From a cyanobacterium endosymbiont of Rhopalodia gibba (GTDB lineage: Bacteria > Cyanobacteriota > Cyanobacteriia > Cyanobacteriales > Microcystaceae), in NCBI GenBank assembly GCA_045159875.1, contig CP067995.1:192001-256000 (forward strand): DNA of 64,000 nt, given 5' to 3'. Below are positions 55,747 to 58,700 of the stretch, in pieces. The stretch's first letter is position 1, and every line of letters begins with the position of its first letter. The position numbers are program-made.

Positions 55747-58700
55747 TTAGGTCTATCCAATAATAAAGAAATATGATCATTAAGTGAGATGTATCCTGAG
55801 AATACAGCTATTTTCATCAAAAATGAAGAAAAATCATTTATTCGCTTTCTGGAATTGTGTTTCCACAATCACCACATTTACCTTATCAAGACTCGACTCT
55901 GATCGCACCTCACAATGCATTCAAACAAACAATTTACCTTCTGAATTTGTTGCCAATCGGTTTTAAGTCTACTAGTAGCAAATCTCAGTTTTTAGGGTAG
56001 AACCTAAATACCCCCGACACCAACAAAGTCGTTAGCAGCCACTACATTGATAATAATTTTAGCAAGCTCTTCAATGACTTCAGTATTGGGAAAATCTACT
56101 CCTAGAATTTCTTTTTTTTATTAAAATTGATCATGAATTTATTGATCTTGCTTTCAAATTTCGTTTCAATCACCACTAAGTCTGTATTGATGGTGGAGAC
56201 CATACAAAAACCTAATTATTTTTTAACTGGTCCGTTGAGCTTAATTCAATAAATTTTTACCAACTTCTTCAGTTTTGTCAGCAATGAGTTCAATGGACAG
56301 AACATAGCTAATCACTTTTTTGATCTCGTTTTTTTGTATTTTTTTGAGGCAATAGGTTGATTAAGTTGATTAAATCGGCAGCTTTCTCTTCTAACTCTCC
56401 TTAATTAACTTCCATCGATTGTGCCATCTATTTTGACGGGGCGTGGGGAGGTTAACTGTTACACTTTAGTAAGCAACGTCGTAATCGTTCTTAACGGATG
56501 TTAATGCAAGCAAGGTCGCATTAGTTTGTTTGAATGACGACAAAAACTAATTTATCAATGCTTTTGACTCCTCAACAATGAGATGAACATATTTGTTTAG
56601 TCTAAATTATTTTTATCTACCTTAATAAAGGAACAACTCGAATAGTTATATTTATAATCGATAAATTATCGAAATTAATATATCATTTTTAAATCTAGAG
56701 GATACATCTCTTGTTAAGGTAAATCTAGTATTAGGAGATTGAGTCCAGTTAACTTTTCAGATTATCCTATAATTAGGGTGTTCAATATTTATTAGTTAAC
56801 AATAGTACTCAATTTTTATCATCAAAATACTCATTCCCAGAAGGATTAATTTCATCTTTAAATTCCCGTAGAGTTTTTCCCAAAGTAGATCCAATTTTAG
56901 GAATTTTTTTAGGACCAAAAATCAATAAAGCAACACCGATAATAACGACTACTTCCGTCCATCCTAATCCAAACATATTAACTCCAGATACTACAACGAT
57001 TAATTCGGTTTAATCAATAAACTACTAGTAATATTCTATGCTAGAAAAACACCGAAGTTCAAAGGATAACACTGAATTAATGTCTTAACGTAATGTTAGA
57101 ATAGCCAAGGCTACAACAATTGAGTTTGATGCTAGTGGAGAATTGCTTGAATAAATCTTGCCTTGTGTAGCACTCATCGCTAATTATTCGAAAATCCTAG
57201 CTAATAAGCGGTATGTTAGACACTTCACCCGTTTCTGTTCACTCTCAATTCAACCCCTTGATACGACTACTCGCTGATGTTATTCAATATCATTGGGAAC
57301 AATATTTCCCCCTAATCTCCTATGAATTACCCGACGGGTTAGGACATGTGGAAGGAAAACTTGGAGGAAAAGAAGTGGTGATTGAAAATCAATGTTATCA
57401 AACTCCTCAGTTCCGTAAACTCCATTTAGAATTTGGAAAAATAGGACAGGAATTGGATATTCTTCATTGTGTGATGTTTCCTCATCCTAGTTATTCTCTA
57501 CCTATGTTCGGTTGTGATATCGCAGCAAGTCCTGAAAGAGTAAGTGCGGCAATCGCAGATTTAGATACCGCTAACCGAGAACTGACTCTTACTTCAGAAA
57601 ACCACCAAGCCCTATCAAAATCACCAGTTTTGGAGTTTTCTGAATCGCGTCAATTACCCGAATGGGGCGATATTTTCTCCGACTATTGTTTATTTATTTC
57701 TCCAACTGACCCAGAAGAAGAAACTCAATTTTTGTCTCGTGTAGCTGAATTTTTGAAGATTCACTGTCAGACTGCGGTAGATTCTCAAACTGTTTCTAGT
57801 AAACAACAAATATCTAACTTAGCCCGACAGTATTACTATTGCACAAAGCAACAACAAAAGGATAAAACCCGTCGAGTTATAGAAAAAACGTTTGGTAAAA
57901 AATGGGCTAATAAATATATGACTCAAGTGTTGTTTGACTTACCTACCCAAGATAAATAAACTCTTGAAAAGTCACTCTAAAAAGACAGCGAGAAAAGTTT
58001 TTAGTTTCAAAAATATGACTTCCTACCAAAAAATAATTAGAGGAAACATTTGAGAATGAATGAAAAAGTAAGACTATTAGAAGTGATCGCCGGAAAAAAT
58101 CGAGGGTTATTAGCGACGGAAATGGATCGGGTAAGAGTTCTTTCGGCCTTAGAACAACTTGAAGATCATAATCCCATTCCTCAAACTTTAGAAGCAAAAG
58201 AATTACTCGATGGGAATTGGCGGTTACTCTATACCACAAGTAAGGAAATTTTAGGACTTGATCGCCTTCCCGTATTGCAATTAGGAGAAATTTATCAATG
58301 TCTTCGCATGGCTGACGGGAAACTTTACAATATTGCTGAAATTATTGGAGTACCTTTTTTAGAAGGATTAGTGAGTGTTATAGCTAGGCTTGAAGTCGTC
58401 TCTGACAGGCGAGTTAATATTAAATTTGAACGTTATATTATTGGTTCCCAAAGGTTATTAGGATATCGATCACCTAATCAGCTAATTAAAGATATTGAAG
58501 CAGGAAAAAAGTTTTTTTCTCTAGATTTTAATATCGAAAGTCAAGAACAACAGGGATGGTTAGAAATTACTTATTTGGATGATAATCTTCGAGTAGGAAG
58601 AGGAAATGAAGGAAATGTATTCGTTTTATCTAAAGAAAAGGGTATTTAACTTATTTTAAAAAGGATTAAGCCAATATTATGTTTTTTTCTCTAGATTATT

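Follow-up and report, generated by a model that had tools for sequence, protein, structure and literature searches.

Why would a cyanobacterial endosymbiont that no longer photosynthesizes keep an enzyme of bilin synthesis, and where would the substrate of that enzyme come from? These questions are raised by pcyA, the gene for phycocyanobilin:ferredoxin oxidoreductase, in the endosymbiont of Rhopalodia gibba. Photosystems are absent from the reduced genomes of the genus, and only fragments of phycobiliproteins are left in this one. A preliminary description had proposed that PcyA and the clock-input kinase CikA form a surviving light or bilin sensor that feeds a retained KaiABC-SasA-RpaA clock on biliverdin made by the diatom host. 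As a whole, this interpretation was partly supported by the analysis.

The genome under study (G000) was compared within its genus with four other reduced genomes (G001, G003, G004 and G006) and three of free-living size, eight genomes in all. Three genomes of 1.4–1.5 Mb from a sister genus (G031–G033) represent a second reduced lineage. Positions given without a prefix refer to the window, the 64,000-nucleotide stretch from 192001 to 256000 of contig C1 (CP067995.1) that was analysed, and those prefixed C1 to the whole contig.

Identity and surroundings of PcyA

pcyA occupies 57213..57959 on the plus strand (C1:249213-249959). The ORF starts with ATG and encodes 248 aa without stops. Pfam family PF05996 matches residues 23–242 (2.3e-65), and with 321.5 bits the protein passes the cut-off of the NCBIfam PcyA equivalog NF002760, which is 206. 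All other bilin-reductase equivalogs, those of PebA and PebB among them, reach 24–67 bits and stay below their cut-offs of 263–327. The solved PcyA structures 2D1E (1.2e-81) and 2G18 (5.3e-91), from Synechocystis sp. PCC 6803 and Nostoc, align with the protein from end to end. Glu76, His88 and Asp105 are reported in PMC9800206 to be essential in Synechocystis PcyA. Alignment to 2D1E places E73, H85 and D102 at these positions, and the equivalents of Ile86 and Tyr238 are also present. The equivalog threshold and the catalytic residues thus assign the protein to the PcyA class, confirming that the ORF is a real, full-length PcyA. Two plant-type [2Fe-2S] ferredoxins encoded in the genome are candidate electron donors.

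The protein differs from its well-known counterparts in two respects. In the free-living Synechocystis and Nostoc, one or two heme oxygenases precede PcyA and its product goes to phycobilisomes; both oxygenases and all phycobiliproteins are gone in G000. In addition, of the 76 columns that do not vary among 25 free-living sequences, 9 are changed in the G000 copy; the changes include N216K in a conserved C-terminal helix and A75G beside the catalytic Glu. This count ranks second to the 11 changes in the G003 pseudogene, and about half of the replacements on the G000 branch itself hit columns invariant in free-living sequences. pcyA is open in 4/5 reduced genomes of the genus, as described previously. 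In G003 the first codon is Ile, codon 172 is TAA, and D102N is a known inactivating D→N change.

Downstream of pcyA lies a PAP_fibrillin-family gene (58050..58649, plus strand; PF04755, 5.4e-61), which is 85–92% identical across the reduced genomes and adjoins pcyA in 11 of 30 loci examined. Upstream, a small conserved 55-aa ORF on the minus strand (56809..56976) shares 68–73% identity with its counterparts at the corresponding position of loci L011 and L013, and judged by eye only it looks TatA-like. Further upstream, tblastn with ORFs from the syntenic locus L009 revealed a gene remnant with many in-frame stops (55783..56564, minus strand), whose counterpart in a free-living relative is an open frame of 257 aa. 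Around pcyA, predicted promoters and terminators were no more frequent than in shuffled sequence, and the scan gave none upstream of the gene. Four RNA-labelled runs from one sample of one study (X1–X4) contain this stretch as 13–16 kb contigs. Their depth is flat over genes, spacers and the neighbouring pseudogene, so that they cannot show transcription, and the signal may be DNA carry-over. A search by name only for pcyA, phycocyanobilin, cikA and heme oxygenase in the supplements of PMC12377750, PMC11131595 and PMC11070190 gave no match.

Heme oxygenase loss and selection on pcyA

Each of the three free-living-size genomes has two intact copies of heme oxygenase (PF01126). Among the reduced genomes, 3/5 have wrecks only and 2/5 have nothing, in agreement with the preliminary description. 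That account counted a single wreck in G000; two were found, at approximately C1:1339985-1340637 and C1:1629265-1629920, both with stops and frameshifts. G000 is thus without a functional heme oxygenase, and the canonical pathway of heme oxygenase followed by PcyA is incomplete. Deletions of 61 bp and 2 bp in hoA are common to G000 and G001, and a GAA→TAA stop in hoB is common to G000, G001 and G006. The tree of the reduced genomes is (G004,(G001,(G006,(G000,G003)))), with 95% support for the G000 and G003 node and only 38–46% for the nodes that place G001 and G006. Because these lesions are shared on this tree, both genes had died before the four inner genomes diverged. Among 89 genomes of the family, a heme oxygenase match free of stops is missing only from the five reduced genomes, G031–G033, two genomes that are 71–79% complete, and G008.

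Selection on pcyA was measured with our own implementation of the GY94 branch model, and pairwise dN/dS with NG86. Free-living branches have an omega of 0.117, and those of the reduced genomes 0.315. On the latter omega = 1 is rejected (LRT 65.9, p = 5e-16), and relaxation relative to free-living relatives is about threefold (LRT 22.9, p = 1.7e-6). On the G000 terminal branch omega is 0.37 and omega = 1 is again rejected (p = 0.006). The changes specific to G000 comprise 9 synonymous and 10 non-synonymous ones (binomial p = 0.0105). A four-class model does not improve on a single omega shared by all the reduced branches (p = 0.26). In a neutral simulation with substitutions only (400 replicates per branch length), the ORF was still open in 7% of replicates at t = 0.05, in about 1–2% at t = 0.08–0.10 and in none at t >= 0.15.

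The remnant at 55783..56564 was used as a local neutral comparator. Against the four other reduced genomes it shows JC distances of 0.12–0.37 with 38–204 gap columns (0.13 and 38 against G001), compared with 0.096–0.16 and no gaps for pcyA. Among intact shared ORFs the omega of pcyA ranks at the 79th percentile against G006 (n = 214) and at the 93rd against G004 (n = 238). Intact ORFs in broken pathways were considered as neutral leftovers, an idea taken from PMC5638926. Since omega of chlB and chlN is 0.10–0.17 in three reduced genomes, these genes are not neutral calibrators and the approach was rejected. These results support the conclusion that pcyA was held under relaxed purifying selection after the death of both canonical heme oxygenases.

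The explanation that we tentatively favour, at somewhat less than an even chance, is that PcyA is functional, or was so until very recently, and serves bilin regulators on biliverdin from outside. Selection would have maintained PcyA through the whole endosymbiont radiation, with the heme oxygenases already dead. The threefold relaxation, the upper-tail omega, the nine invariant-site changes and the loss of pcyA in the sister G003 count against this explanation.

A possible but less probable alternative is that pcyA is a relic in decay. The bilin path of G000 would no longer work, pcyA would be its last piece not yet hit, and the selection signal would come from the earlier part of the branch. 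The number of invariant-column changes in G000, close to that of the G003 pseudogene, is what a relic would show, as is the rank of its omega among retained ORFs, and the four-class model gives no better fit than one reduced-branch omega. Neither pcyA nor either CikA Cys survives in the sister G003, and in G000 kaiB, gun4, chlB and chlN are broken and the DXCF Cys of CikA is gone. Opposed to this are the rejection of omega = 1 on the terminal branch itself, the intact catalytic triad and Tyr238 equivalent, and the lack of indels or stops in pcyA beside a pseudogene with dozens of gap columns. Neutral survival of the ORF over just half of the G000 branch would have a probability of a few percent. 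Furthermore, because gun4 and kaiB each have a single early stop in an otherwise clean frame, their losses are very young.

The source of biliverdin

Retention of PcyA implies that its precursor comes from outside or from unknown chemistry. Other heme-cleaving families were sought in the reduced genomes. DUF2470 is present in 0/5 of them versus 3/3 free-living genomes, ABM and HemS are each present in 0/5, and the single PNPOx protein is PdxH. These searches support the earlier finding of no HugZ/IsdG/HemS-type family: across the five known families tested, no other heme-cleaving family is present.

The same situation is found in the second reduced lineage. UCYN-A, an N2-fixing endosymbiont, retains photosystem I. 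In G031–G033, pcyA is open with its catalytic residues present, and its omega of 0.10–0.16 makes it as constrained as in free-living cyanobacteria, unlike in G000. Neither a PF01126 match (at E <= 1) nor a phycobiliprotein was found in any of the three (0/3 each). All three have a CikA ortholog with the canonical Cys, in which the Asp and Cys of DXCF are absent. LLNQLR is present in GUN4 of the two genomes compared (G031 and G032), and the chlorophyll branch of the lineage is intact. UCYN-A shows the same gene pattern in Table S2 of PMC12903740: pcyA, cikA and gun4 without heme oxygenase or phycobiliproteins. The pattern is thus already listed in a 2026 supplementary table, without discussion in the main text. 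Recurrence of pcyA without heme oxygenase in an independently reduced lineage is supported. The earlier reservation that the co-loss of pcyA and the CikA Cys rests on a single lineage still applies.

The diatom host probably has a heme oxygenase, and a host supply of biliverdin is plausible. Excerpts of PMC12377750 report hundreds of imported host proteins in UCYN-A, so that in UCYN-A import could extend to a host enzyme. The same source reports six host proteins detected in the diazoplast, and such a small number makes an imported metabolite more likely than an imported enzyme.

Coupled oxidation of heme is not regiospecific. This weakens the unlikely alternative that no host is needed, by which an unrecognised endosymbiont enzyme or non-enzymatic coupled oxidation would make enough biliverdin for a trace demand. 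Without antennae the demand would indeed be tiny, and a heme-oxygenase-independent bilin route is reported in Chlamydomonas (PMC9393634, in part). The enzyme of that route is not identified, and 0/5 known heme-cleaving families tested are present in functional form in the reduced genomes.

Under the favoured explanation, a plant-type ferredoxin would reduce PcyA, which would convert traces of biliverdin IX-alpha to phycocyanobilin. No known endosymbiont enzyme would make the biliverdin; its source would probably be the host, or else an unknown or non-enzymatic route. Low-demand bilin-binding regulators, and not antennae, would receive the phycocyanobilin. Probably a small pigment-binding regulator remains active in these endosymbionts, and it may depend on the host.

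Candidate bilin-binding regulators

The preliminary description overlooked GUN4. GUN4 orthologs bind phycocyanobilin through an LxNxLR motif whose Asn is needed for binding, according to excerpts of PMC10156173. gun4 of G000 (C1:897851-898300, outside the window) has the motif as LLNQLR. Codon 10 is changed from TGG to TAG. The frame is open over the other 233 codons, with a GTG 10 codons further downstream. LLNQLR is intact in all seven open-pcyA genomes whose gun4 was compared, including G000, G001, G004, G006, G031 and G032; gun4 of G003 is a wreck. A GUN4 paralog (C1:2328387-2329091) was rejected as a bilin binder as it is without LxNxLR. chlB and chlN are open in G001, G004 and G006 (omega 0.10–0.17), and dead in G000 and G003. 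Table S2 of PMC12903740 lists gun4, chlH, chlM, chlB and chlN as intact in 3/6 spheroid bodies and UCYN-A, all with pcyA, whereas pcyA is broken in two of the other three spheroid bodies. The distribution of pcyA is matched by that of GUN4 and by the state of the chlorophyll branch no less closely than by the CikA Cys.

A precedent is the HMOX1-PCYA1-GUN4 system of Chlamydomonas, in which a bilin reductase is likewise kept without phycobiliproteins or phytochromes and the bilin acts through GUN4 and regulation of the chlorophyll branch (excerpts of PMC9393634 and PMC10156173). Chlamydomonas keeps heme oxygenase and photosynthesis; G000 has lost both, and its gun4 and chlorophyll branch are broken. 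Phycocyanobilin might then be kept solely so that GUN4 can protect or regulate Mg-chelatase, with pcyA decaying after the chlorophyll branch and the CikA Cys being incidental. The distribution of intact LLNQLR, of gun4 and of chlB and chlN fits this idea, as does the tabulated co-occurrence. Omega of pcyA is also graded, from 0.10–0.16 in G031–G033 through about 0.22 in reduced genomes that keep the branch without photosystems to 0.37 or a dead gene where the branch is lost. We nonetheless consider the idea doubtful. Without photosystems the chlorophyll branch has no evident purpose, pcyA of G000 is constrained despite a dead branch and a gun4 stop, and the groups compared are clades that represent about two independent events.

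CikA is encoded outside the window (C1:416940-419228) and has the architecture GAF-HisKA-HATPase-receiver. Its GAF domain (approximately residues 176–365) best matches the solved cyanobacteriochromes 6OAP (6.2e-23), RcaE (3.3e-18), 6BHN (1.9e-17) and 3W2Z (1.1e-14). The chromophore Cys in the CH or CL of these targets corresponds to the Cys of SSSFCF, which is followed by Phe and not His or Leu. This Cys is present in 7/8 genomes and is Ser in G003, the genome that also lost pcyA. The best matches, the aligned Cys and its distribution had been described correctly, and so had the replacement of the second Cys. The DXCF Cys is His in G000 (AEDNHF), Arg in G003 (AEDNRF) and Cys in the other 6/8, and the codons TGT, CGA and CAT are compatible with one common first step. 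Lacking the second Cys, G000 CikA falls outside the DXCF two-Cys subfamily. In the inner clade, omega is 0.33–0.49 for the GAF versus 0.13–0.20 for the kinase core.

The closest known system is the photoactive two-Cys DXCF protein SyCikA (Slr1969), whose photocycle is reportedly violet/yellow. It has the same domain architecture, and its gene slr1969 is listed as an ortholog of cikA (PMC12903740 Table S2). Both of its Cys residues are present in the free-living relatives and in three reduced genomes; G000 has His in DXCF and Phe after the canonical Cys. Synechococcus elongatus PCC 7942 CikA is likewise clock-associated, with GAF, kinase and receiver-like domains. Its GAF is not known to carry a bilin Cys, and it shows that CikA can work without a bilin.

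Cyanobacteriochrome-like GAF matches number 2 per reduced genome versus 7–10 in free-living relatives. The MASE1-GAF-kinase at C1:866509-868752 is cyanobacteriochrome-like (8K9O, 3.1e-29), and it was rejected as a bilin binder since the chromophore-position Cys is found in 0/8 genomes. In a GAF-histidine kinase with a 705-residue open frame (C1:2103446-2105560), HMMER aligned a Cys to the phytochrome Cys; this candidate was set aside owing to an 8-residue gap after the Cys and a Tyr in G032. The search for further bilin binders found no PHY domain. Judged by these alignments, the GAF of CikA is the only Cys-bearing one of cyanobacteriochrome type that remains.

The proposed clock fared less well. 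The kaiB ortholog (C1:1939617-1939859) has AAA→TAA at codon 5 in G000, which therefore has no intact KaiABC. A lesion common to G000 and G003 was rejected, as codon 5 of G003 still reads Lys and its kaiB is damaged elsewhere. Stop-codon recoding was also rejected because the early stops differ (TAA in kaiB, TAG in gun4).

Least probable is that CikA is the sole client, a photoreceptor entraining KaiABC-SasA-RpaA, with host biliverdin as the lever of the diatom on the timing of N2 fixation. Its status as the sole remaining Cys-bearing GAF of this type, the joint loss of pcyA and the CikA Cys in G003, the canonical Cys in an independent reduced lineage and the lack of an endogenous biliverdin route among the families tested are consistent with it. 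Excerpts of PMC10156173 describe PebA and PebB homologs rather than PcyA in stramenopile algae, so the host could supply biliverdin, probably not phycocyanobilin. Nevertheless kaiB is broken in G000 and G003, and UCYN-A is described in part of PMC5520375 as without kaiA and kaiB; with these losses several of these genomes have no KaiABC oscillator. The GAF is relaxed relative to the kinase core, GUN4 and the chlorophyll branch account for the distribution of pcyA equally well, and the co-loss rests on one lineage. Retaining CikA needs no bilin, because the receiver-like domain of Synechococcus elongatus CikA is reported to respond to quinone redox (PMC7332365, in part).

Returning to the favoured explanation, in which PcyA serves low-abundance regulators, the canonical Cys of the CikA GAF would form a covalent bond with phycocyanobilin, and GUN4 would bind it through LxNxLR without such a bond. 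The bilin module of G000 is eroding, and the system is part-way dismantled at the DXCF Cys, kaiB, gun4, the chlorophyll branch and the invariant sites of PcyA. If CikA still senses light or bilin in G000, it would do so with a one-Cys photocycle and feed RpaA without a KaiB-dependent oscillator. Damage to both candidate clients in G000, with His as the second Cys of CikA and TAG in gun4, weighs against the favoured explanation. So does the dampened day-night regulation in the transcriptome of another spheroid body; excerpts of PMC11131595 leave open whether cues are missing or the clock is broken.

These results bear on how young N2-fixing endosymbionts stay in step with the day of their host. 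Selection on pcyA after heme oxygenase loss in two lineages points to a testable component, a low-abundance bilin-binding regulator that may be CikA or GUN4. It is conceivable, if rather unlikely, that two N2-fixing lineages, the diatom spheroid bodies and the 1.4–1.5 Mb lineage, converged on PcyA, Cys-bearing CikA and GUN4 without heme oxygenase. The host alga would make biliverdin, not phycocyanobilin, and would thereby hold a handle on the sensor that sets daytime N2 fixation. The metabolic complementation would here concern a signalling cofactor and not a nutrient. The five reduced genomes form a decay series from all intact through part-eroded (G000) to gone, and could be used to test which partner PcyA serves.

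pcyA and its surroundings

The genus of the Rhopalodia gibba endosymbiont (G000) comprises five reduced genomes of 2.5–3.1 Mb (G000, G001, G003, G004 and G006) and three of free-living size (G002, G005 and G007). The preliminary description portrayed a nitrogen-fixing symbiont that has lost its photosystems and phycobilisomes. This setting holds, because psbA/psbD-type and psaA/psaB-type genes are stop-riddled remnants or missing in the reduced genomes, nifDK/nifEN-type genes are intact, and phycobiliproteins, looked at in G000 alone, survive only as fragments.

A 248-aa open reading frame occupies window 57213–57959 on the forward strand. 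The window starts at position 192001 of contig CP067995.1 (C1), so pcyA lies at C1:249213–249959; a start of 224001 had been given in error, while the remaining contig coordinates were right. The product matches Pfam PF05996 (2.3e-65) and the NCBIfam PcyA equivalog (321.5 bits, cut-off 206), with other bilin-reductase classes far under their own cut-offs. Solved PcyA structures align with it end to end (2G18, 5.3e-91; 2D1E, 1.2e-81). By all sequence tests the predicted product is PcyA, and the gene is intact as first described. Residues E73, H85 and D102 align with Glu76, His88 and Asp105, reported as essential in Synechocystis PcyA (PMC9800206).

Directly upstream lies a stop-riddled pseudogene (window 55783–56564, reverse strand), whose counterpart in a free-living relative is an open frame of 257 aa. 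The other neighbours are a small conserved ORF of 55 aa (56809–56976, reverse strand) and a PAP_fibrillin gene (58050–58649, forward strand). G+C content is very low at window 1–2000 (0.21) and 28001–30000 (0.25) and is 0.30–0.44 in the rest of the window. Contigs from four sequencing runs labelled RNA (X1–X4) measure 13–16 kb over window 50000–64000 and up to 156 kb elsewhere, with flat depth across genes and spacers. Short pieces near 51299–51316, 51385–51402, 57001–57021, 59059–59104 and 59223–59240 recur on other contigs, which suggests small dispersed repeats.

Loss of heme oxygenase

Genomes of free-living size each contain two intact heme oxygenase (PF01126) genes, and the reduced genomes have only wrecks (two in G000, two in G001, one in G006) or nothing (G003, G004). 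This agrees with the preliminary description except that G000 contains two dead copies, hoA and hoB, rather than a single one. Nucleotide alignments reveal lesions that recur between genomes. G000 and G001 have two hoA deletions in common, one of 61 bp and one of 2 bp. In hoB, G000, G001 and G006 carry the same GAA to TAA stop, and G000 and G006 also have a 1-bp deletion in common. A tree built from cikA plus pcyA reads (G004,(G001,(G006,(G000,G003)))), with 95% support for G000+G003. On that tree, in which support for the two nodes that position G001 and G006 is just 38–46%, these lesions mean that both genes had died by the time of the common ancestor of G000, G001, G003 and G006.

The reported absence of other heme-degrading families was also found here. 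DUF2470 (HugZ type) is missing from 5/5 reduced genomes and present in 3/3 of free-living size; ABM (IsdG type) and HemS are each found in 0/5 reduced genomes. The single PNPOx-fold protein is PdxH. In a search of 89 family genomes, a stop-free oxygenase match was missing only from the five reduced genomes, three of 1.4–1.5 Mb, two that are 71–79% complete, and G008. G008 (6.6 Mb draft, 590 contigs, 99% complete) is the sole near-complete genome of free-living size in this group; its case, probably an assembly gap, is a caveat on inferring absence from these searches.

The three 1.4–1.5 Mb genomes (G031–G033) belong to a sister genus. Their pcyA genes are open, with catalytic residues present and dN/dS (omega) of 0.10–0.16 among the three, and 0/3 have a phycobiliprotein or, even at E ≤ 1, a PF01126 match. 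They form an independent replicate of pcyA without oxygenase. Table S2 of PMC12903740 lists heme oxygenases 1 and 2 as absent from six Rhopalodian endosymbionts and UCYN-A, pcyA as present in UCYN-A and 4/6 endosymbionts and as interrupted by a stop at residue 172 in the remaining two, and cikA for all seven. The table thus records the same pattern for named organisms.

The gene pattern is therefore already in print in a supplementary table of a paper whose main text does not contain the word bilin. The inference from it was not found in a search that had subscription papers and preprint supplements outside its scope. Among the matches listed for spheroid bodies or Epithemia pcyA was not mentioned, and no paper paired Epithemia with heme oxygenase. 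For UCYN-A and heme oxygenase, neither term occurred in any title or abstract, and one such paper concerned a different symbiont. Bilin, heme and CikA in two further papers, one being PMC12903740, yielded nothing relevant.

Selection on pcyA

The pcyA frame is open in four of the five spheroid bodies, as had been claimed; G003 pcyA is a pseudogene that starts with an Ile codon, carries the classic D105N-type change and is cut by TAA at codon 172, among other changes. Pairwise dN/dS is 0.22–0.40 among reduced versus 0.10–0.15 among free-living genomes. A GY94/F3x4 branch model, in our own implementation rather than standard software and meriting repetition, gave omega of 0.117 on free-living and 0.315 on reduced branches, a significant difference (LRT 22.9, p = 1.7e-6). 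Omega = 1 was rejected on the reduced branches (LRT 65.9, p = 5e-16) and on the G000 terminal branch (omega 0.37, p = 0.006). The G003 branch (omega 0.51) is indistinguishable from 1 (p = 0.079). In neutral simulations with substitutions only (400 replicates per branch length), the frame stayed open in 7% of replicates at 0.05 substitutions per site, in about 1–2% at 0.08–0.10 and in none at 0.15 or above. Relative to G001, G003, G006 and G004, the pseudogene that lies 650 bp upstream has JC distances of 0.13, 0.15, 0.12 and 0.37 with 38–204 gap columns; in the same comparison pcyA is gap-free at 0.096–0.16. Together, these lines of evidence indicate that purifying selection acted on pcyA after heme oxygenase was lost.

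Open frames in common with 400-kb samples of G006 and G004 (reciprocal best hits, ≥80% coverage) were used for a genome-wide comparison, with 1/215 G006 pairs dropped. Omega of pcyA is 0.23 against G006 (79th percentile; median 0.151, n = 214) and 0.29 against G004 (93rd percentile; median 0.130, n = 238), so selection on pcyA is weak by G000 standards. At 76 alignment columns invariant among 25 free-living PcyA sequences, changes number 11 in G003, nine in G000, seven in G006, four in G004 and three in G001. Among the G000 changes are A75G, which is adjacent to the catalytic Glu, R163S, and N216K, which falls in a conserved C-terminal helix that presumably contacts substrate. G000 PcyA is predicted to be active, or to have been so until very recently, and G000 stands midway along a decay series ending in G003.

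Candidate bilin users and biliverdin source

We propose that pcyA encodes an enzyme that works, or did so until very recently, and that would be retained for a low-demand bilin-binding regulator. CikA (C1:416940–419228, outside the window) has GAF, HisKA, HATPase and receiver domains. The nearest solved structures to its GAF are cyanobacteriochromes, and a Cys aligns with their chromophore Cys, as originally proposed. This Cys is found in 7/8 genus genomes, as previously counted, and in 3/3 sister-genus genomes; the exception is Ser in G003. At the position of the second (DXCF) Cys, G000 has His, again as described, and G003 has Arg; the codons (TGT; CGA; CAT) are compatible with one common first step in the G000+G003 ancestor. 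No PHY domain is present. A cyanobacteriochrome-like GAF query has two matches per reduced genome versus 7–10 in free-living relatives. The second is a MASE1-GAF-histidine kinase (C1:866509–868752, outside the window), 89–97% identical among reduced genomes and therefore strongly kept. Its GAF is closer to solved cyanobacteriochromes (8K9O, 3.1e-29) than that of CikA, and it was rejected as a bilin binder since Cys is missing at the chromophore position in 8/8 genus genomes.

GUN4, overlooked in the preliminary description, could be a second bilin user. Phycocyanobilin is reported to bind cyanobacterial GUN4 orthologs via an LxNxLR motif (PMC10156173). LLNQLR is intact in G000, G001, G004, G006, G031, G032 and free-living relatives; G003 gun4 is a wreck. 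The G000 ortholog (C1:897851–898300, outside the window) has TGG to TAG at codon 10, a GTG 10 codons downstream and 233 open codons after the stop, and is either a very young pseudogene or restarted. The chlorophyll branch follows a similar course. chlB and chlN are dead in G000 and G003; in G001, G004 and G006 (loci L156–L161) they are open and under purifying selection, with omega of 0.10–0.17. In these non-photosynthetic genomes the branch is maintained, not simply slow to decay. Table S2 of PMC12903740 lists gun4, chlH, chlM, chlB, chlN and kaiB1 as intact in the same 3/6 spheroid bodies. The pcyA distribution fits the CikA Cys and GUN4 plus the chlorophyll branch about equally, each comparison resting on roughly two independent events.

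No canonical oxygenase of the symbiont itself supplies biliverdin, the PcyA substrate. The host is a plausible source. Few host proteins, six, are reported from the diazoplast (PMC12377750), and PebA/PebB homologs in place of PcyA are reported from stramenopiles (PMC10156173). In Chlamydomonas at least, a heme-oxygenase-independent route to bilin is described (PMC9393634).

CikA had been thought to feed a retained KaiABC clock. This fails for G000, because codon 5 of kaiB (C1:1939617–1939859, outside the window) has changed from AAA to TAA, though the frame is clean apart from that. G003 kaiB is a wreck with different lesions, and UCYN-A is reported to have neither kaiA nor kaiB (PMC5520375). 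CikA could act on RpaA in G000 without intact kaiB, a candidate route.
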